Shown piece after piece: positions 10,429-21,546 of a stretch of 64,000 nt of DNA. The notes below the pieces were generated by a model. That model saw nothing but the letters and a program-made list of their open reading frames with translations. It made no database searches and was not told where the DNA came from. The number at the start of each line of letters is the position of its first letter. Position 1 is the stretch's first letter. The translations under genes and the position numbers were made by a program. The DNA is from Escherichia coli (GTDB lineage: Bacteria; Pseudomonadota; Gammaproteobacteria; Enterobacterales; Enterobacteriaceae), in NCBI RefSeq assembly GCF_009931435.1, contig NZ_CP043414.1; one strand, 5' to 3'.

Positions 10429-11322
<894 letters not shown>

Positions 11323-11361
11323 TTACCTCATCAATCGCTTGTAGTTATATGTTGTGTTGTG

Positions 11362-11392
11362 CACATCTATCCGTTTAGACGTCCAGATGTAA
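11362..11392 (-). promoter_or_regulatory. MetJ operator (tandem met boxes) in metF promoter
   Basis: Minus-strand reading ACATCTGGACGTCTAAACGGATAGATGT, tandem 8-bp repeats near consensus AGACGTCT, 45-75 bp upstream of metF start. Confidence 0.6.
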
Positions 11393-11701
11393 AGATGAAG
11401 GAAAAGCTGAAGGGCGTCAACCGAAAAATGACCAATGATGGTGAGGAAAAATCAGGGAAGATGAAAAAAACTCATCTTAATTAGAGGTAATAAAGAGATT
11501 TCTTTATAGCGCAATCAACCTCACTCGTTTTGACTGATATACAGGCAACACAACGGCACCTGTTCTCATTCGAAAAACAACGCCCTGCCACCGGATGGTG
11601 ATGCTAAAGCATCTGATTCGGCCTGCGCTCTCGTGTAGGCCGAATACAGAATCTGCGAAATCAACGGGTAACAAACAGTAGAGTCAACTCAGTGCGTACT
11701 T

Positions 11702-13261
11702 TTACTTAATATCTTTCACGCGCATACCGTTGATCTGTTCATCCGTGATGGTATTACCCGCTTTAAAGTAATCAACCACCGCGTGATAAACGTAATAACC
11801 GCCCGTCGTATTGCGCGCTTTACCCTCGGTAAACGCGGTAAAACCATCTCCACCATCAGCAAGGAAACTCTGAGTGGCAATGTGGTAAACCGTCGCATCT
11901 TCAATCGGTTTGCCATTCAGAGTCAGCGAGATAACCCGCTGACCAACCGGCTTGCTGCTGTCGTACTTCATTTCCAGGCCTTTCGATACCTGTAAAACGC
12001 CATTACTCAAACTTGCGCCGTGTTCCATCAAACCGCGTAATTGTTTACCCGTGAGTTCCATCGTCACCAGTTCGTTGGGGAACGGGAAGGTACTGATGAC
12101 GCCACCCATCGTAATTGCACCCGCCGGGATCTCATTGCGAATCCCACCAGAGTTGGTTAACGCCAACTGGGTATTTTTACCCGCCGCTACCAGTAAAGCG
12201 TCCGCCGCCAGGTTCCCCAGGGATGCCGATTCACCATAGGCACGTTTTAATTCAACTGGCGATTGCGCCACCGTTTGCTGCACGACTTCATCCAGCTTTT
12301 TATTCCAACTATCAATCACCTGTTTTGTTTGCGCATCGGGCTTCCACTCGTCGGCGTAAAGGGTTTTAAGCTCGAAGTTTTTCACCGTAAAAGTGTGCGG
12401 TTTCTCTTTGAAGTCGAGAACCAGTTTACCCACATCAATCCCTCCGCTGTCAGTGGAAAGGATGAGCGTATTGCCGACTTTAATCGGTTCCGGCGTACCC
12501 ACATGTGCATGTCCGGTGATCAAAATATCCAGCCCTTTCACCTGACTTGCCGTCTGTATATCTTTATCCAGCGCGCGACGCACATCTGTGCCTCCCATAC
12601 TGGACTGGCGGGCCGGAACACCTTCGTGAATCAGGGCGACGGTCAAATCAACCTTGCCTTTGAGTTCATCGATATAACGTTGTAACCACTTAATTTCATC
12701 ACGCGCTTCAATACCCACTCGCGTGGCAGCGGATACCGTGTCATTAAAGGCAAATACTCCGTGCAAACCAATCACACCAATTTTCACGCCGTCTTTTTCA
12801 ATAATGGTATATGGCTTATCCCAGAATGATTTACTGCTGTTCTGATAAAAAATATTACCCTGCACAATCGGGAATTTTGCCTGACTCAACTGTAATAGGG
12901 TGTTGTCCCAGCCGTGATCAAATTCATGATTCCCTATAGTGACCGCATCGAACGGCATGGTATTCATAATATCGATAATCGCCTTGCCTTTAGTCAGGCT
13001 GCTGATATACGGCCCGGTAAAATAGTCACCCGCATCAAAAAACCAGGTCGCTTTGTTTTTAGCTTTTTCTTGTTTAACAAGCGTAGTGATATTTGCCCAG
13101 CCGCCAATATCCCGTTTACCGTCAGCAATCCACGGCACTTTATAAGGCTCTACATGTGCATGGAGGTCGTTGGTATAAATAATGGTGACATCTTTGGCGC
13201 AGGCCCAAAACGGCAGTGTTAATGCGATACCCGCAGCAAGCATTTTAATTTTCATAAACAA
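11702..13261 (-). CDS. Secreted bifunctional metallophosphatase/5'-nucleotidase family protein (paralog A)
   Basis: 519 aa; N-terminal signal peptide; calcineurin-like motifs DLHAHV, GDYFTG, GNHEFD, HEG, GHAHVG; C-terminal 5'-nucleotidase-like domain (UshA/CpdB architecture). Confidence 0.8.
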
Positions 13262-13313
13262 TCCCTTCCAGTGAGATAAAGGATTGCTACATTACGTTCT
13301 GAAAGGCTTTTTT

Positions 13314-13331
13314 ATGTGAGAATACTCACAT
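13314..13331. promoter_or_regulatory. Perfect palindrome ATGTGAG-AATA-CTCACAT in divergent intergenic region
   Basis: 18-bp dyad seen between the divergently transcribed nucleotidase A and Cys-rich protein genes; candidate operator. Confidence 0.3.
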
Positions 13332-13387
13332 CCAGAGGCGATAACTGTAGGACAAAATCAACGACCTTATGAAATCGTTGGTGATAT

Positions 13388-14515
13388 ATGTCAAATCTGT
13401 TTGCGATTAATGTCTGTAAAACGTTCGGTTGTCGAAATTTGGGATTGGCCTCATCGGAAGATTACAGTTGGCCAGACTATAAACTGGGTTTTCCGGCACT
13501 GCACTGCCAGGCATGCGGAAGTTACCCCCCTTTGTTTGATGAACAACAATTTCGTGACTGGTTGTCAGTTCACATGACTGCGTGTGCCATAGAAACAGGG
13601 CATTTTTGTCCATCATGCTATTGTAAAGAAAAGATTTTTTATGGCCACAACCCGCAGGGAACACAACGCGTTCAATGCCGTTCATGCAAAAAAGTCTGGA
13701 CTCCGAAACAGCAGCCAGCAAGAGAAATTACGTATCCCCAGTCCATTGAAACCGTTCAACTGTTCATGCCCTTTCAAGGAGCCAGCGCAGTACAAAAGCT
13801 CTATGTTTTAGTCAGTCTTGACGCCACTCGTGGCAACATCCTTCATCTCTCCACGAATTATACGCAACATCAGACAGGAGACAGTCTGCGGTACAGTTAC
13901 AGAGGCAATACAGAACCAACTGAGCACCATAGCGATATTGTGCAGAGGGTAGATATGCGTGAAGCGCAATTCTTGCGCCGGAGCCAGTTCGATGAAATTC
14001 AGTATGGCAGTGCTGTGCTCAAGCGCAACGGCAAGGGAGCCATACTACGCCCGGTTATCACGGCACACGGGCATTTCAGAATACTGAAAATCCGCTTTCC
14101 ACATGTCAAAACGCATATCATTTCACACGAATGTTTTCTGAGAGGCGCAATTATTACAGCCTGGGCAGATCAGTTCCGCCAACAACAAGGCGAACTTTGG
14201 TTCGTAGAAGAAGAAATCAGCGACCGTAACGCTGATATTCCCTGGCATTTTCAGGGAACGACATACCATGGTTGGTGGCAAAATCAGTGGCAACGCTGGG
14301 GGCAGGGGAATAACAGCAAGATGGTCTGCCTGCTCACAGGAGTCTCCTTAGAAAGGGGCGCAAATGTTTCTCTGGCAACCAGTCGTTGCTTTATCACATG
14401 GCTGACAGACCAACACGACTTTACCCAAAGCGCGTTATTATCCGCAGGTCGCGTAACGAAAATGCTGACCTCACTGGCGTTAAAATACAATGAATCGCTC
14501 ACTCCATCTTGTTAG
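13388..14515 (+). CDS. Cys-rich (putative zinc-ribbon) protein of unknown function
   Basis: 375-aa ORF; N-terminal clusters C-x2-C...C-x2-C (CQACGS, CPSCYC, CRSCKK) resembling zinc-ribbon modules; no confident family assignment. Confidence 0.55.
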   Translation: MSNLFAINVCKTFGCRNLGLASSEDYSWPDYKLGFPALHCQACGSYPPLFDEQQFRDWLSVHMTACAIETGHFCPSCYCKEKIFYGHNPQGTQRVQCRSCKKVWTPKQQPAREITYPQSIETVQLFMPFQGASAVQKLYVLVSLDATRGNILHLSTNYTQHQTGDSLRYSYRGNTEPTEHHSDIVQRVDMREAQFLRRSQFDEIQYGSAVLKRNGKGAILRPVITAHGHFRILKIRFPHVKTHIISHECFLRGAIITAWADQFRQQQGELWFVEEEISDRNADIPWHFQGTTYHGWWQNQWQRWGQGNNSKMVCLLTGVSLERGANVSLATSRCFITWLTDQHDFTQSALLSAGRVTKMLTSLALKYNESLTPSC

Positions 14516-14744
14516 TCAATACACTCGACAAACGACCATAAATTAATGGGATCACTATTTCTCATTTAATTAAATATATGAATGTATGACTGAAAAATAT
14601 AATCACAGTCAATGTTTAATTAATAACATTATTTGTTACTAAGATCACATAATACTTTCCTGACCTATGCTCTTATAAAAATAAGACACGGTGTTCCTTT
14701 TATTTAAATAATTCAACCAATGTAACAACCCCTATCAAGGAGGG

Positions 14745-16298
14745 ATGATGAGAACTGTATTTACGACTTTATCAGTCATATTCAGCGTGATGTTTTCTCA
14801 CAGTATACTAGCTCAGGACGTTACTATTTATTATACGAATGATATTCACGCACATGTCAATCCGGCAAAAATTCCCGCTGTTGATAAGAACAGACTTGTA
14901 GGTGGTATGGCTAATATTGCAGGCATCGTTAATGAAGCGAAGAAAAAAAACAAAGATGTCTTTTTCTTTGATGCAGGCGACTATTTTACCGGTCCGTATA
15001 TCAGTACCCTGACCAAAGGTGAAGCTATTATTGATATCATGAACACCATGCCCTTTGATGCGGTGTCCGTTGGTAATCACGAGTTCGATCACGGCGTGCC
15101 CAATATGGTATCTCAGTTATCAAAAGCAAAATTCCCCATTCTGCTGGGAAATATTTACTACACCGATACAAATAGACCAGTTTGGGATCATCCGTGGACC
15201 ATTATCGAAAAAGATGGTTTAAAGATTGGTGTGATTGGATTGCATGGTGCATTCGCTTTCTATGATACAGTCGCGGCAAAAGCACGTGAAGGCGTAGAAG
15301 CCAGAGACGAAATTAAATATTTAAATAAAGCACTTGCAGAATTAAAAGGTAAAGTCGACATTACCGTTTTGCTAATTCACGAAGGTGTTCCGGCGCGTCA
15401 ATCAAGCTTTGGTAGTAAAGATGTGGAGCGGCTACTACAGGCAGATATTGAGACAGCTAAAAAAGTGAATGGTGTTGATGTCTTAATTACCGGTCACGCA
15501 CATGTCGGAACACCGCAACCAATAAAAGTTAATAACACATTAATTGTATCTACCGATGCATACGGCACCGACATCGGAAAACTTGTGCTTGATTACAATC
15601 CGAAAACAAAGAAAATTGATAGTTATAATGGTGAGTTAATCACCATCTTTGCAGATCAATTTAAACCTGACACCATCGTTCAAAATACTATCGATAAATG
15701 GAGCGTAAAGCTTAACAAAATCACACAGGAAGTTGTCGGCCATTCTCCCGTAGTTTTAACACGTGAGTATGGCAGTTCTTCTTCTACCGGTAACCTTATT
15801 CTGGATGCAATGATGGAAAAAGCACCTGATGCCATTGCCGGATTTCAAAATAGCGGTGGGATGCGAGCTGATTTTCCTAAAGGTGATATCACACTGGGAG
15901 ATGTTATTAGCACATTCCCCTTTAATAATGACCTCATCGAGATGGATTTGACGGGCCGCGATCTCAAATCATTGATGACGCATGCAACCAATCTAACTAA
16001 CGGTGTGTTACAGGTTTCAAAAAGCGTTGCGGTTGTCTATGACAGCAAAAAACCACTCAACCAGCGGTTAATCTCTTTCACCATTAACGGCAAACCCGTG
16101 GAAGATAATCAAACATATCGTATTGCCACGCACTCCTTTTGTGCCAGTGGTGGTGACGGTTTTGAAGCATTTTTGAATGGAAAAAATGTGAAGACGATAC
16201 CGGGAACAACCTCGGCGGAATCTATCATCGATTATTTCAAAAATCATAAACCTGTCACCCCAGACTTAACTAAACGAGTCATGGACGTCGCCAAATAA
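14745..16298 (+). CDS. Secreted metallophosphatase/5'-nucleotidase family protein (paralog B)
   Basis: 517 aa; signal peptide; same metallophosphatase motif set as paralog A but most divergent of the three. Confidence 0.8.
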   Translation: MMRTVFTTLSVIFSVMFSHSILAQDVTIYYTNDIHAHVNPAKIPAVDKNRLVGGMANIAGIVNEAKKKNKDVFFFDAGDYFTGPYISTLTKGEAIIDIMNTMPFDAVSVGNHEFDHGVPNMVSQLSKAKFPILLGNIYYTDTNRPVWDHPWTIIEKDGLKIGVIGLHGAFAFYDTVAAKAREGVEARDEIKYLNKALAELKGKVDITVLLIHEGVPARQSSFGSKDVERLLQADIETAKKVNGVDVLITGHAHVGTPQPIKVNNTLIVSTDAYGTDIGKLVLDYNPKTKKIDSYNGELITIFADQFKPDTIVQNTIDKWSVKLNKITQEVVGHSPVVLTREYGSSSSTGNLILDAMMEKAPDAIAGFQNSGGMRADFPKGDITLGDVISTFPFNNDLIEMDLTGRDLKSLMTHATNLTNGVLQVSKSVAVVYDSKKPLNQRLISFTINGKPVEDNQTYRIATHSFCASGGDGFEAFLNGKNVKTIPGTTSAESIIDYFKNHKPVTPDLTKRVMDVAK

Positions 16299-16332
16299 AA
16301 TATCATTTATCAGTCTATTTATTTAACAAGGA

Positions 16333-17958
16333 ATGCGAATGAAAACAGTGCAGCGTACTTTACTTGCCGCAACATTGCTGACTATTTTTTCGGTTTCAGT
16401 CATGGCGCAGGATGTCACGATTATTTATACAAATGATCTTCACGCTCATGTGGATTCTTATAAAGTGCCGTATATCGCAGACGGAAAACGCGACATTGGC
16501 GGCTTTGCCAATATATCTACTTTAGTAAAACAAGAGAAAGCGAAAAATAAAGCCACCTTTTATTTTGATGCTGGAGACTATTTCACCGGCCCTTATATCA
16601 GCAGTCTGACAAAGGGCGAAGCAATAATTGACATTATGAATACCATGCCTTTTGACGCAGTATCAATCGGTAATCATGAGTTTGACCATGGCTGGGATAA
16701 TGCCCTGCGACAATTAAGCAAAGCGAATTTTCCTGTTTTATTGGGCAATGTTTATCATAAAGAGAGTGAGAAACCCTTCTGGAACAAGCCCTACACCATC
16801 CTGGAAAAAGATGGCATCAAGATTGGTATTATTGGGCTACACGGCGTATTTGCATTTAATGATACGGTCTCGGAGCTCTCTCTCCAGGGACTCGATAATG
16901 ACAATAATAACCGCTTTGATAAATCTTCCGAGACCCTTAAGAATCAGGGGATTGAAGCACGTGATGAAGTGAAGTATTTGCAACATTATATCGACGAGTT
17001 ACGTGATAAGGTTGACCTCACTGTGGCGCTGGTTCATGAAGGCGTTCCGGCGCGTCAGTCCAGCATTGGCAATACAGATGTTAGACGCGCTCTTGATAAA
17101 GATATTCAAACCGCTAGCAAGGTGAAAGGATTGGATATTCTGATTACCGGGCATGCCCACGTCGGAACGCCAGAACCAATCAAAGTCGGCAACACCTTAA
17201 TCCTTTCAACTGATAGTGGCGGTATCGATATTGGTAAATTAGTCCTTGATGTCAACCCTACAGCTCGTACCCATAAAATGAAGAGCTTTGAGCTGAAAAC
17301 AGTTTATGCCGATGAATGGATACCCGATCCAACGACACAAAAAGTTATCAATGGCTGGAATAAAAAACTGGCGGATATTGTACGCCAACCAGTGGGTGAA
17401 TCATCGATTGCATTAACTCGCGCCTATGGTGAGTCATCGCAACTAGGCAACCTGTTTACCGATGCAATGCTTGTCGCTGCTCCGACTGCACAGATTGCAT
17501 TGATAAACTCCGGCAGCTTACGTGCGGATATAAATGCAGGCACGATTACCTTTGGCGACATTACCAGTACATTCCCCTTCAAGAATGAACTTACTGAAAT
17601 GGATCTCAGCGGTAAGGATCTGCGTAACCTACTGGAACACGGGGCATCGCTTACCAATGGCATCCTGCAAATGTCAAAAGGCGCAGAAATGCGCTATACC
17701 CCGCAGAAACCAGTAGGTCAGCGCATAGTATCTTTTAAAATTAATAGTGAAGAGATCGTTGATACGAATATTTACCATGTTGCAACAACGACTTTCCTTG
17801 CACTGGGGGGCGATGGTTTTCTGGCATTCAAAGAAGGGAAAAATGTTCAGGTCCGCGCCGGAAATAACATGTCCGATGTCGTGATCGATTATTTGAAGAA
17901 AGGCCACAAGATTACGCCTGCACAGGTAAATGAAATGCGGGTGGACGTTAGCAAATAA
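16333..17958 (+). CDS. Secreted metallophosphatase/5'-nucleotidase family protein (paralog C)
   Basis: 541 aa; closely related to paralog A over most of its length, with a 20-aa insertion (ELSLQGLDNDNNNRFDKSSE...). Confidence 0.8.
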   Translation: MRMKTVQRTLLAATLLTIFSVSVMAQDVTIIYTNDLHAHVDSYKVPYIADGKRDIGGFANISTLVKQEKAKNKATFYFDAGDYFTGPYISSLTKGEAIIDIMNTMPFDAVSIGNHEFDHGWDNALRQLSKANFPVLLGNVYHKESEKPFWNKPYTILEKDGIKIGIIGLHGVFAFNDTVSELSLQGLDNDNNNRFDKSSETLKNQGIEARDEVKYLQHYIDELRDKVDLTVALVHEGVPARQSSIGNTDVRRALDKDIQTASKVKGLDILITGHAHVGTPEPIKVGNTLILSTDSGGIDIGKLVLDVNPTARTHKMKSFELKTVYADEWIPDPTTQKVINGWNKKLADIVRQPVGESSIALTRAYGESSQLGNLFTDAMLVAAPTAQIALINSGSLRADINAGTITFGDITSTFPFKNELTEMDLSGKDLRNLLEHGASLTNGILQMSKGAEMRYTPQKPVGQRIVSFKINSEEIVDTNIYHVATTTFLALGGDGFLAFKEGKNVQVRAGNNMSDVVIDYLKKGHKITPAQVNEMRVDVSK

Positions 17959-17970
17959 TAAAAAAATTAT

Positions 17971-18007
17971 AATGCCATTCATTCACTGAATGGCATTATT
18001 TTTCTCT
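17971..18007 (+). terminator. Hairpin plus T-run between nucleotidase C and the tsx-like gene
   Basis: AATGCCATTCA-TTCAC-TGAATGGCATT followed by ATTTTTCTC. Confidence 0.45.
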
Positions 18008-18036
18008 AAATCAACAATAGATAATGAGATATATTT

Positions 18037-18897
18037 ATGTGTATAAAAAAGCACGGGATAGCTTTATCGATTCTATTAATACCTTGCATTGGAAACGCTC
18101 AGGAAATTAAAAGTGAGGAAGGCTGGTTACATCAAAGCTTGAATGTCATTGGTCGCACAGACTCTCGCTTTGGCCCAAGGCTGACTAACGACCTCTACCC
18201 TGAATATACTGTAGCAGGAAGAAAAGACTGGTTTGATTTTTATGGTTATGTTGATCTACCAAAATTCTTTGGCGTCGGCAGTCACTATGATGTTGGGATC
18301 TGGGATGAGGGCTCACCACTATTTACGGAAATAGAACCTCGGTTTTCCATTGACAAATTGACCGGATTAAATCTTGCGTTCGGCCCTTTTAAAGAATGGT
18401 TCATTGCAAACAACTATGTCTATGATATGGGTGACAACCAGTCATCCCGGCAAAGTACATGGTATATGGGGCTTGGTACAGATATCGACACGGGTCTACC
18501 AATTAAGCTTTCTGCCAATATATACGCCAAGTATCAGTGGCAAAACTATGGTGCCGCTAATGAAAATGAATGGGACGGATATCGATTCAAAATAAAATAT
18601 AGCATTCCTCTTACCCATTTATTCGGAGGGCGATTGGTATACAATAGTTTTACTAACTTTGATTTTGGCTCCGATCTTGCGGACAAATCACACAATAATA
18701 AACGAACCAGTAATGCTATTGCTTCAAGCCATATCCTTTCCCTGCTATATGAACACTGGAAATTTGCATTTACACTACGTTATTTTCACAACGGTGGACA
18801 ATGGAATGCTGGGGAGAAAGTTAACTTCGGAGATGGTCCATTTGAATTAAAAAACACAGGATGGGGAACCTATACTACTATTGGTTATCAATTTTAA
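18037..18897 (+). CDS. Tsx-family nucleoside-specific outer-membrane channel paralog
   Basis: 286 aa; signal peptide; long collinear similarity to E. coli Tsx ([72 protein letters not shown]-terminal GY-F). Confidence 0.85.
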
Positions 18898-19078
18898 ATC
18901 AGGTGATGTTTTAGATATTTTTACTTAATGCCATTTTGTAATTGTCATAAATAACTTCACCATTCACACTGTGAATTCATCGCTCAACACAAAAGCCCCC
19001 TTATTACCGGGGCACTGACCAAAGGCAAAATGACAATCAATCACCACCTCCGCAGGAGGTGGTTTAGAGGTGACAACA

Positions 19079-19104
19079 AAAGCTGGCAACTGCCAGCTTT
19101 TGTT
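19079..19104. terminator. Symmetric, bidirectional-type hairpin downstream of metL
   Basis: AAAAGCTGGCA-ACT-GCCAGCTTTT with U-tracts on both strands, immediately 3' of the metL stop. Confidence 0.55.
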
Positions 19105-19113
19105 CAATAATCA

Positions 19114-21546
19114 CTACAACAACTGCGCCAGACGGTTAATATCCGACTGAATCGCCCCGGCGGTGACGTCGCGCCCTGCGCCTGGCCCACGGATCACCAG
19201 CGGGTTGTCGCGATACCAGCGGCTTTCGATGGCAAAGACGTTATCGCACGGTAGTAGTGATGCCAGCGGATGGTCTTCTCGCACCGCTTCCACGCCTACT
19301 CGCGCTTTGCCGTTAGCATCGAAACGCGCCACGTAGCGCAACACCAGCCCCATTTCACGGGCCGCTTCCAACCGTTGTACCATCTGCTCATTAAGTTCAT
19401 CGCCATTTTCAAAGAAATGGTCGATGCTGCCACCTTCGCAATGGGTTGGCACCAGTGATTCAACACGCACCTGGTCCGGTTCAATGTTGTAACCCGCTTC
19501 ACGCGCCAGAATCACCAGCTTGCGCATCACGTCTTTGCCGGAGAGGTCATCACGCGGGTCAGGTTCAGTTAAGCCCTGCTGCCACGCCTGATCCACCAGC
19601 TCGGTAAACGGCACGCTACCGTCGAATTGCAGGAACAGCCAGGAGAGCGTGCCGGAGAAGATCCCGCTGATCGACAAAATAGTGTCGCCGCTGTCGATCA
19701 GATCGCGCACGGTATGGTTGATCGGCAAACCTGCGCCGACGGTGGCGTTGTATAGCCAGTGACGCCCGGTTTTTTCGAACGCGTCGTGGATCTGTCGATA
19801 TTTATTGCTGTCGCTGGCTCCCGCCAGTTTGTTGGCACTGATGACGTGGAAACCGTGGCTGGCGAAATCGAGATACTGATCAGCAAGCTGCTGGCTGGCA
19901 GTAACGTCCAGCACAACTAAATCATCATACGGATGGGCACGCATCCACAGGAACAGCGACTCTTCATCCTGTTCGACGGCTTCATCATTAAAGAAGGCTA
20001 GCGCACGGCTGGCGTCCAGCCCGTCATAGCTCAACAGGCTGCGACGGCTGTCCACCACGCCTGCCAGCACAAATTCAAAGCCGGTGCGCGCCGAGAGTGT
20101 ACTCTGCTCACGGGCGAACAGTTCCAGCCAGCGGGAACCGATATTGCCCTTACCGAACAATACCAGGCCGATGCGTTTTTCTGCGCGGAAGACGGACTGA
20201 TGCAGCCCCTGAATCAGGCTTTCGGTCGGGCCGGTGCGCAGTACTGCCACCAGGCTGATGCCGTCATCGGACTGCCAGGTAAACTCGACCGGCTGGCCTT
20301 TCAGTTGCTGCCAGAAGCGGTGGCAATGCAGCGGGTTACGGGTGACGCCCGCCCCAACCATCGCCACCAGCGCCAGCCCCTGACGCAGACGCAGTTCGCC
20401 GGGTAATCCTGCTTCGTCGAGGATTTTCAGCGCACTGTCGGCCACTTCCGAGGTGTAGCAAAATTGCAGCAACTGGCGATCGTTATGCACGCCAACTGCC
20501 AGTGGGCGCACCTGAGCACGTTTCAGGATTTGGTCGATCTCTTTATGCGCCAGTTTAAAATCCTGACTGGCGGGCACCTGAAACTCAATCAAACAGACAT
20601 CATCGTGGCTGGTGACAATACGCGCGCCAGTACCTGAGGCCAGCACGCGTTCAATGCGCGTGGAACCTTGATCCGGCGTGTAGCTACAGCGCAGCTGCAG
20701 GTCGATTTCGCTGCCAGAAACTGGCTGTAAAGTACGGGCGTGAAGAACGGGGGCCGCCAGACGCGCCAGTTCGCTGGCTTCATCCAGACGCAGCAACGGC
20801 AGCAGGCAGGCGTCTTTCACTTTACGCGGGTCGGCGCTATATACCCCGGCGACATCGCTCCAGATGGTTACGCGGGAAACTCCCGCCAGCGCACCGATTT
20901 GTGTCGCGGAATAGTCGGAACCGTTACGCCCCAGCAGCACCGTTTCACCGGCGTTGTTACGGCTGATAAACCCGGTCACCACCAGACGTTTGCCCGGATG
21001 TTGTACCAGTAGCTGTTGCAGCAACGGGTAAGAAAGCCCTTCATCAACCTGCGGCTGCGCGGCGCGTTCAGCGCGTAAAAACTCGCGGGCATCAAGCCAG
21101 GCCGCTGGCAGCCCTTGTTGATTAAGTACCGCAGACATCAGGCGCGCCGACCACACTTCACCGTGGCCCACCACTTCCGCATACACCGCATCGTTAATAC
21201 CGCTGTCGAGCAGCGCCGCCAGGCGTTCCAGATCGCTGACAAAAGCGCTAATGAGGCTATCGGCTTCTTCAGCGGGTAGCAGGCCGCTAATCAGATCGCA
21301 CTGATAGCGACGCAGCGTTTGTTGAACCTGATGCGCAGAGAGACGATCGGTCTGGCTTAGTTTCAACCAGTTAATCAACTGGTTAGTGGTGCTACCGGCG
21401 GCGGAAACCACCATCATATCGTCAGGCTGAGAGTACTCCGCCATAATGCCCGCGACACGCAAATAACACTTCACATCAGCCAGACTACTGCCACCAAATT
21501 TATGCAGTTGACGACCTTTCGCCCCTGCCTGCGCAATCACACTCAT
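19114..21546 (-). CDS. metL: Bifunctional aspartokinase II / homoserine dehydrogenase II
   Basis: 810-aa ORF; start overlaps metB stop region (operon metBL). Confidence 0.95.
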   Translation of the reverse strand: MSVIAQAGAKGRQLHKFGGSSLADVKCYLRVAGIMAEYSQPDDMMVVSAAGSTTNQLINWLKLSQTDRLSAHQVQQTLRRYQCDLISGLLPAEEADSLISAFVSDLERLAALLDSGINDAVYAEVVGHGEVWSARLMSAVLNQQGLPAAWLDAREFLRAERAAQPQVDEGLSYPLLQQLLVQHPGKRLVVTGFISRNNAGETVLLGRNGSDYSATQIGALAGVSRVTIWSDVAGVYSADPRKVKDACLLPLLRLDEASELARLAAPVLHARTLQPVSGSEIDLQLRCSYTPDQGSTRIERVLASGTGARIVTSHDDVCLIEFQVPASQDFKLAHKEIDQILKRAQVRPLAVGVHNDRQLLQFCYTSEVADSALKILDEAGLPGELRLRQGLALVAMVGAGVTRNPLHCHRFWQQLKGQPVEFTWQSDDGISLVAVLRTGPTESLIQGLHQSVFRAEKRIGLVLFGKGNIGSRWLELFAREQSTLSARTGFEFVLAGVVDSRRSLLSYDGLDASRALAFFNDEAVEQDEESLFLWMRAHPYDDLVVLDVTASQQLADQYLDFASHGFHVISANKLAGASDSNKYRQIHDAFEKTGRHWLYNATVGAGLPINHTVRDLIDSGDTILSISGIFSGTLSWLFLQFDGSVPFTELVDQAWQQGLTEPDPRDDLSGKDVMRKLVILAREAGYNIEPDQVRVESLVPTHCEGGSIDHFFENGDELNEQMVQRLEAAREMGLVLRYVARFDANGKARVGVEAVREDHPLASLLPCDNVFAIESRWYRDNPLVIRGPGAGRDVTAGAIQSDINRLAQLL

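Follow-up and report, generated by a model that had tools for sequence, protein, structure and literature searches.

The window analysed here, a 64,000-nucleotide stretch of an Escherichia coli chromosome, carries a low-G+C island between metF and metL (11.7 to 18.9 kb; G+C content 0.39 to 0.49, versus ~0.55 in the flanks). The island begins with a 5'-nucleotidase gene on the minus strand (nucleotidase A, nucA), followed by the gene for a 375-amino-acid (aa) Cys-rich protein, two further nucleotidase genes (B and C) and a tsx-like gene (Table 1). The Cys-rich gene, the subject of this report, is the sole gene of the E. coli island that encodes neither a nucleotidase nor a channel, and its product is listed in RefSeq as a 'hypothetical protein' (WP_000067197.1, E. 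coli IAI39) or a 'cytoplasmic protein'. An original prediction made from the sequence alone had given the open reading frame (ORF) at 13388..14515 on the plus strand, with an ATG start and 375 aa, which was confirmed exactly; the gene order it described was confirmed as well: nucleotidase A is transcribed away from the Cys-rich gene, and nucleotidases B and C and the tsx-like gene run in the same direction as it. Three identities had been offered for the protein, a regulator dedicated to the island, a domesticated transposase and a novel enzyme. We find that an origin from a transposase is well supported, and we infer the regulatory function, DNA binding, effector sensing and promoter geometry that are discussed below.

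Table 1. Genes, protein regions and control elements of the island, with positions in the window (CDS, coding sequence; HTH, helix-turn-helix; UTR, untranslated region)
Feature	Position	Strand	Remark
5'-Nucleotidase A (nucA), UshA-like, signal peptide	11702..13255	-	Invariant divergent partner of the Cys-rich gene
Divergent control region, 132 bp, nucleotidase A/Cys-rich gene	13256..13387	.	Conserved across Enterobacteriaceae
Near-invariant block TTACGTTCTGAAAG	13292..13305	.	Over the inferred -35 of the nucleotidase A promoter; candidate operator
Perfect CRP consensus TGTGAGAATACTCACA	13315..13330	.	Expected count 0.06; no other exact match in the 64 kb
Candidate -10 CAAAAT, Cys-rich gene	13353..13358	+	Conserved; position inferred from sequence
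Palindrome CAACGA-N10-TCGTTG, then GGTGAT-ATG	13359..13380	.	Inferred transcription start/5' UTR; candidate auto-operator
CDS, 375-aa Cys-rich protein	13388..14515	+	ATG start; transposase-derived, immobile
Zinc ribbon 1, aa 8-48 (C10, C15, C40, C43; NxCKxxGCxNxG...CxxCG)	13409..13531	+	Conserved; modelled (AF2) with short beta strands
Zinc ribbon 2, InsA/IS1-type, aa 72-107 (C74, C77, C97, C100)	13601..13708	+	Pfam, NCBIfam and hhalign matches
Short linker, aa 108-118	13709..13741	+	In place of the ~70-aa InsA-like HTH of longer relatives
RNase H-like (DDE transposase/integrase) fold, aa 119-317	13742..14338	+	AF2 model
C-terminal helical bundle, aa 321-371, ending in a conserved YN motif (N368)	14348..14500	+	Model and conservation
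Second CRP-like site TGTTACTAAGATCACA	14634..14649	.	1 mismatch; ~100 bp upstream of nucleotidase B
5'-Nucleotidase B	14745..16298	+	Accessory part of the island
5'-Nucleotidase C	16333..17958	+	Accessory
Tsx-like nucleoside-specific outer-membrane channel	18037..18897	+	Accessory

The N-terminal part of the protein holds four Cys pairs, C10-x4-C15, C40-x2-C43 (CQAC), C74-x2-C77 (CPSC) and C97-x2-C100 (CRSC), the last three of which had been listed in the original prediction and the first of which had not. None of the eight Cys varies among 18 enterobacterial homologues. Among 51 homologues with less than 45% identity, C10, C15, C40, C43, C97 and C100 are Cys in every protein that has a residue there, C77 is Cys in 49 of 50 and C74 in 42 of 51; C79, of the 'CYC' sequence, is not conserved. 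The spacing, on whose conservation the prediction had hung, is therefore kept far beyond chance in both the close and the distant set. The eight Cys form two four-Cys zinc ribbons, the first of which has no counterpart in IS1 InsA.

Library searches with the single protein returned weak matches, all of them on the second zinc ribbon. The NCBIfam IS1 transposase model (NF033558) scored 20.4 bits (E = 4e-4) over aa 74 to 136 only, with a cut-off of 100 bits; the NCBIfam IS1/IS1595 Zn domain (E = 0.026), Pfam Zn_ribbon_InsA (PF03811; E = 0.043) and a zinc-ribbon transposase, which was the only match in PHROGs (E = 0.003), complete the set. At the family level, 8 of 61 members match Pfam Zn_ribbon_InsA (best 1.4e-7), and distant members reach 26 to 37 bits on NF033558 with alignments extending to model position 130 to 137 of 199, the start of the catalytic domain. 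An hhalign comparison of the family alignment with IS1 InsAB' (the reference being reconstructed from IS1A of E. coli K-12) paired columns 72 to 155 with InsAB' residues 5 to 88, that is, with the zinc ribbon plus the HTH, at a probability of 97% and an E value of 1e-10. The likeness to InsA- or IS1595-type zinc ribbons that had been remarked on earlier is thus real, weak for the single protein (E = 4e-4 and 0.043) and significant for the family. The IS1595 family model (NF033547) did not match the Cys-rich protein or 8 distant members, while true IS1595 proteins score 122 to 156 bits on it, and the relation to that family runs only through the zinc ribbon. The Cys-rich protein is not a member of the IS1 or the IS1595 transposase family.

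In IS1 InsA, recognition of the DNA ends is attributed to the HTH. In relatives of 400 to 570 aa, an HTH-like segment of ~70 aa lies between ribbon 2 and the C-terminal domain; it is absent from the 375-aa subfamily in the alignment, and in the hhalign output the Cys-rich protein is gapped opposite the InsA HTH. The short Enterobacteriaceae subfamily has thus lost the HTH, a loss not noted in the original prediction, and any DNA binding would fall to the zinc ribbons and the RNase H-like domain.

The remaining ~250 aa had been described as matching nothing recognizable, which holds for sequence searches and fails for structure. No Pfam DDE domain was found in the 61 family members, and a PDB sequence search with the single protein gave nothing above noise (best E of 2.2, a flavohaemoglobin). 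C2H2 zinc fingers, the sole PDB matches of the family profile, were rejected as similarity of Cys/His spacing and composition and not homology. AlphaFold (AF2) gave a predicted local distance difference test score (pLDDT) of 40.8 with the 18 close homologues only; a good model needed the distant members, and the 61-sequence alignment yielded a pLDDT of 93.8 and a predicted template modelling score (pTM) of 0.93. In this model the strands and helices follow the order beta1 (aa 119 to 128), beta2 (136 to 145), beta3 (151 to 156), an alpha helix (184 to 197), beta4 (242 to 246), a further alpha helix and beta5 (269 to 276), with H247-E248 directly after beta4 and, after beta5, a beta-rich insertion (aa 287 to 317) that carries the motif GWWxNxW. 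The C-terminal ~250 aa accordingly have the fold of a transposase catalytic domain. A Foldseek search of the model against AFDB50 returned only family members among its top 50. An hhalign comparison of the C-terminal domain with the InsB part of IS1 was not significant (probability 0.3%), so for this half an IS1 parentage rests on the likeness of fold and on the N-terminal homology.

Catalytic positions were placed tentatively, from predicted secondary structure and the alignment of the 51 distant members. The D2 position, after beta4, is E248 and is acidic in 50 of 51 members. The inferred D1 position in beta1 is T or S at residue 122 in 46 of 51 (T122 in the target); the alternative, position 123, is acidic in 14 and non-acidic in 37 of 51, and is Val in the target. 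No helix with a conserved acidic residue follows beta5, and in the motif GWWx[D/E/N]xW position 299 is D or E in 34 of 49 distant members and N299 throughout the E. coli subfamily. Since the D1 and third acidic positions are mostly not acidic or not identifiable, the canonical DDE triad seems to be degenerate. The pocket does not seem random: H229 (50/51), R198 (50/51), N157 (48/51) and W301 (49/49) are near-invariant among distant members, as are Y169, D202, R252, W297 and N368.

The gene does not behave as a mobile element. It is a single uninterrupted ORF of 375 aa, with none of the insA/insB layout of a programmed -1 frameshift, and no inverted repeats bracket it in 11300 to 19200. It occurs in one copy per genome, in 1,841 of 5,426 complete E. 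coli genomes (any allele), and the ratio of nonsynonymous to synonymous divergence (dN/dS) between orthologues is 0.09 to 0.19 with dS up to 2.6, which is purifying selection. All but two of its E. coli places are on chromosomes. The two exceptions stand on plasmid-labelled records. Apparent plasmid copies were dismissed as mis-assigned chromosomal records: the plasmid-labelled match inspected is a chromosomal fragment with katG-metF-metL-metB, most other matches in the plasmid collection are Mb-sized or carry metL too, and all are predicted to be non-mobilizable. The 148-kb 'plasmid 3' of Salmonella Senftenberg NCTC10384 (NZ_LN868945.1) reads katG-metF-nucleotidase-Cys-rich gene-hypothetical-mscS-metL-metB and is evidently a chromosomal piece, and several Mb-sized 'plasmid' records in PLSDB look likewise mislabelled. 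Just before the ATG, at 13380 to 13387, GGTGAT (GGTAAT in Citrobacter) is like the outermost bases of the IS1 inverted repeat (GGTGATG/GGTAATG); this could be an ancestral relic or chance, is too short to judge and was not used as evidence.

Homologues in the Enterobacteriaceae form 252 clusters at 90% identity, and a profile search run exhaustively over 1.84 billion representative sequences gave 141 clusters, including full-length proteins of 400 to 570 aa at 19 to 42% identity. The distant relatives come from Vibrio, Photobacterium, Thaumasiovibrio, Agarivorans, Plesiomonas, Salmonella, Proteus and Serratia, and the database names of relatives include 'cytoplasmic protein', 'IS1 family transposase', 'InsA N-terminal zinc ribbon domain-containing protein' and 'lactate dehydrogenase'. 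The last label, on Vibrionaceae members (Photobacterium; AFDB A0A1B9PDJ0 and A0A9X3CP58), is a propagated misannotation.

Linkage to nucleotidase genes was examined within the Enterobacteriaceae, which is as far as the closer alignment used for it reaches, with one genome per species and 36 loci. A nucA-type 5'-nucleotidase gene lies divergent from the Cys-rich gene, at a fixed distance of ~130 bp, in 35 of the 35 loci with an upstream flank. In 23 of the 36 loci, metF and metL flank this pair of genes as a module (Escherichia, Citrobacter, Klebsiella, Kosakonia, Phytobacter, Pseudocitrobacter, Superficieibacter, Kluyvera and Salmonella), and the orthologous synteny spans more than 10 genera. 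Enterobacter, Citrobacter and some Escherichia have a paralogous locus, in which nucC-tsx-nucB-nucA stands divergent from the Cys-rich gene. Among the 5,426 E. coli genomes, nucA is found in 1,843, two more than the Cys-rich gene, a nearly perfect co-occurrence, and the five-gene island with B, C and tsx in 660. The conserved unit is thus the Cys-rich gene with nucleotidase A and not the whole island, a point absent from the original prediction.

The association with nucleotide and nucleoside breakdown extends to distant members, where it appears in 9 of 10 informative contexts. A Vibrio taketomensis member (29% identity) and a metagenome member (42%) have a divergent 5'-nucleotidase gene, and three members including one from Plesiomonas (23 to 25%) lie directly downstream of one. 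The Agarivorans member (26%) is divergent from nupC-deoC-deoA-deoB-deoD, with TatD and nucleoside ABC transporter genes adjoining, and the Photobacterium member (19%) adjoins a gene of the PNP/Udp phosphorylase family. The Salmonella Give member (27%) is divergent from an operon of a porin, AphA and a class II phosphodiesterase (PDEase_II). One member (24%) has no nucleotide-related neighbour, and for two others (19 to 21%) the contig is too short to give a context. At the Salmonella Give locus, whose operon encodes a class II cyclic-nucleotide phosphodiesterase beside the porin and AphA, IS3-family transposase genes lie nearby, and the locus looks like a separate accessory nucleotide-scavenging island.

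The 132-bp region shared by the two divergent genes was aligned over 34 distinct sequences, the window and 33 loci. It contains blocks conserved far beyond synonymous sites, which are saturated. The block TTACGTTCTGAAAG is unique in the window at 0 mismatches, and the palindrome CAACGA-N10-TCGTTG is unique there too. The CRP site TGTGAGAATACTCACA is conserved in orthologous loci, and a CRP-like site also occurs in loci whose protein contains the HTH. With CAAAAT as the -10, the CRP site would stand near -42, a class II geometry. Relatives with the HTH have another palindrome (ACTGA-N5-TCAGT) at the same place, as expected of an operator that co-evolves with its protein, although an RNA hairpin may also account for it. 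Given the CRP sites at 13315-13330 and 14634-14649, the whole island looks catabolite-controlled, like classical nucleoside genes. Neither the palindrome nor TTACGTTCTGAAAG recurs upstream of nucleotidase B, nucleotidase C or tsx, or elsewhere in the window, so no regulon motif can be defined within it.

Other observations concern the neighbourhood. Nucleotidase A most likely starts at ATG 13255 (517 aa), as RefSeq and the cross-species alignment have it, rather than at TTG 13261 of the longest ORF. Between the five-gene and the two-gene island (E. coli SCPM-O-B-8794), nucleotidase A is 97 to 98% identical and the Cys-rich protein 72% (dS of ~1.6), which points to a recombination breakpoint near the shared promoter, with the allele replaced together with nucB-nucC-tsx. 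In two-gene islands (n = 5 loci) the Cys-rich gene and the convergent metL meet at their 3' ends or overlap there by a few bases. The island corresponds to GR31 of the avian pathogenic E. coli strain BEN2908, for which three nucleotidases and Tsx are listed and the Cys-rich gene is omitted; the product of the tsx-like gene is 67% identical to Tsx (PMC12928451). In RefSeq the tsx-like gene of IAI39 is a pseudogene 'missing C-terminus'; the ORF in the window is complete, running for 286 aa from a signal peptide to a terminal ...GYQF, and other strains have the gene annotated as intact. Elsewhere in the window, between 24000 and 30000, the G+C content swings from 0.35 at 25 to 26 kb to 0.60 to 0.64 at 27 to 30 kb with a strongly negative AT skew, which points to a further segment, foreign or otherwise unusual, that has no bearing on the Cys-rich gene.

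We propose that the Cys-rich gene is a domesticated IS1-like DDE transposase that serves as a regulator or sensor of nucleotide scavenging, a reading to which we assign a probability of about 0.5. Domestication, one of the options of the original prediction, gains strong support from the N-terminal InsA homology and the C-terminal DDE fold, and the evidence establishes it, since transposase ancestry is combined with lack of mobility, purifying selection and a place in the genome that is orthologous in many genera. A regulator or sensor is favoured because InsA, the ancestor, is a repressor that binds DNA, because the gene is the only one of the island that makes neither an enzyme nor a channel, because the divergent arrangement and the operator-like elements are conserved, and because the association with nucleotide and nucleoside genes persists down to 19 to 29% identity across different loci. 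In this account, a descendant of an IS1-like DDE transposase has kept the InsA-type zinc ribbon and gained a second, N-terminal one, retained the RNase H-like fold with a degenerate triad, and lost the InsA-like HTH in the short Enterobacteriaceae form. The gene is now immobile and is passed on together with a periplasmic 5'-nucleotidase gene as a module of two, which have a compact, CRP-dependent divergent promoter in common. The protein would bind operator-like elements within the 132 bp, namely the palindrome at its own start and TTACGTTCTGAAAG at the nucleotidase promoter, and would tune expression jointly with cAMP-CRP, while the formerly catalytic pocket (H229, H247, E248, D202, R198 and R252) may have been re-used for effector binding or oligomerisation.

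Several points weigh against this proposal. The short E. coli form lacks the HTH to which reading of the DNA is attributed in InsA, and the C-terminal half is called IS1-derived although its sequence shows no likeness to the catalytic domain of IS1. The fold is under purifying selection with near-invariant E248 and His, Arg and Asp residues, which could equally reflect residual or novel catalysis. One of the ten informative distant contexts is devoid of nucleotide-related neighbours, and several distant genes are downstream of and co-directional with a nucleotidase gene, an operon-like arrangement that fits a regulator less well. The conserved promoter blocks may be no more than sites for CRP, RNA polymerase or other factors. 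Finally, a literature search found no experiment or publication on the protein family and gave only the description of the island (PMC12928451).

The operon-like contexts and the conserved pocket lead to the best of the alternatives, in which the RNase H-like domain, with a non-canonical site (E248, H247, H229, D202 and D145), cleaves or rearranges nucleic acid; such an enzyme could be a cytoplasmic nuclease for nucleotide salvage or a site-specific DNA-processing activity at the locus. An intact transposase fold under purifying selection, the acidic D2 in 50 of 51 members, the near-invariance of H229, R198, N157 and W301, the D or E at position 299 in 34 of 49 and the several distant genes placed operon-like behind a nucleotidase gene would all suit it. 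We nevertheless consider an enzyme unlikely, given that the inferred D1 is mostly T/S or otherwise non-acidic (T122/V123 in the target), that N299 prevails in the whole E. coli subfamily, that there are no inverted repeats and no invertible segment around the gene, that the locus structure is stable across genera, and that no nuclease family was matched by sequence. The PADLOC models of anti-phage defence likewise gave 0 families at E<=1 for the Cys-rich protein.

Slightly further down the scale, and quite improbable in our view, is a non-transcriptional accessory factor, either an RNA-binding zinc-ribbon protein governing the translation or stability of the nucleotidase mRNA or its own, or a cytoplasmic sensor working through protein contacts, for example, with CRP. 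Linkage was kept in the E. coli subfamily while the HTH was lost, and the conserved inverted repeat stands in the predicted 5' UTR beside the ribosome-binding region, where one change in an arm (A to G, locus L016) preserves a G-U pair. Other arm substitutions, however, break the pairing (loci L019 and L023), and the ancestor was a DNA-binding protein. The hairpin is no stabler than shuffled sequence (z = -1.28) and Rfam has no match in the island, so an RNA element is not favoured. An ordinary insertion sequence (IS) of the IS1 or IS1595 family, or a decaying remnant of one, landed in the island by chance, is refuted for practical purposes: weak zinc-ribbon matches to both families, records that call relatives 'IS1 family transposase' and a low G+C content speak for it, but it is rejected because no inverted repeats flank the gene, and neither the terminal repeats nor the full-length match to an IS transposase that the original prediction had associated with an ordinary IS was found, the score on the IS1 model is 20 bits against a cut-off of 100, a single chromosomal copy occupies a fixed site in 1,841 E. 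coli genomes and many genera, dN/dS is 0.09 to 0.19 over dS up to 2.6, the one ORF has no insA/insB frameshift, the triad is degenerate, and the promoter is conserved and held in common with a host gene.

Here a descendant of an IS1-like DDE transposase has become a fixed and conserved gene of the chromosome, clearly associated with metabolism. The gene occurs in about one-third of complete E. coli genomes, including extraintestinal pathogenic lineages, and in Salmonella, Klebsiella, Citrobacter, Enterobacter, Vibrio and Photobacterium, and it is a candidate for the missing regulator of the accessory nucleotide-scavenging island GR31. The analysis also corrects the misleading names 'cytoplasmic protein', 'IS1 family transposase' and 'lactate dehydrogenase', and the family, in which some forms have the HTH and others lack it, offers a natural series for following the conversion of a transposase to a host function. 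More tentatively, and with the odds leaning somewhat to the other side, the whole gamma-proteobacterial family of IS1-like DDE descendants may consist of nucleotide- or nucleoside-responsive transcription factors whose dead pocket is the effector site. If so, the family would control periplasmic 5'-nucleotidases, Tsx, the deo operon and phosphatases of the AphA/CpdP type, and it would be, as far as could be found, the first bacterial metabolic regulator derived from a DDE transposase.

Among known systems, IS1 itself has an insA/insB frameshift and inverted repeats; the Cys-rich gene has neither and is single-copy and syntenic. Compared with InsAB'/InsA, the Cys-rich protein adds an N-terminal ribbon, a beta-rich insertion and a C-terminal helical bundle, with the HTH deleted and the triad degenerate. 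TnpA of IS6/IS26 and the IS256/Mutator transposases (ISCth4, PDB 6xg8) show 6 to 12% identity to it, no sequence-level relationship and another N-terminal architecture. Control by CytR, DeoR and CRP (tsx, deo, udp and nupC/G in E. coli and Vibrio) is comparable in its target genes and in the CRP site at the promoter. CytR and DeoR, however, belong to the LacI and DeoR families and are unrelated to the Cys-rich protein, and no CytR-type layout of tandem CRP sites was seen, so that the likeness is not one of homology. In its working, the Cys-rich gene would most resemble known domesticated transposases. Conversion of transposases to host regulators is well documented in eukaryotes, and cases for comparison are the transposase-derived transcription factors of eukaryotes and, in bacteria, TnpA-REP/RAYT and the TnpB-derived TldR repressors. 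To our knowledge, few cases of transposase domestication are known in bacteria, all of them non-DDE. TnpA-REP/RAYT and TldR descend from HUH (IS200/IS605) transposases or from TnpB, not from IS1-like DDE transposases, and none is known to be tied to nucleotide scavenging. TnpA-REP has been called the first prokaryotic domesticated transposase (PMC8266576). With domesticated transposases in general, the Cys-rich gene shares one fixed locus and purifying selection and, probably, lost or altered catalysis and a role in the host.

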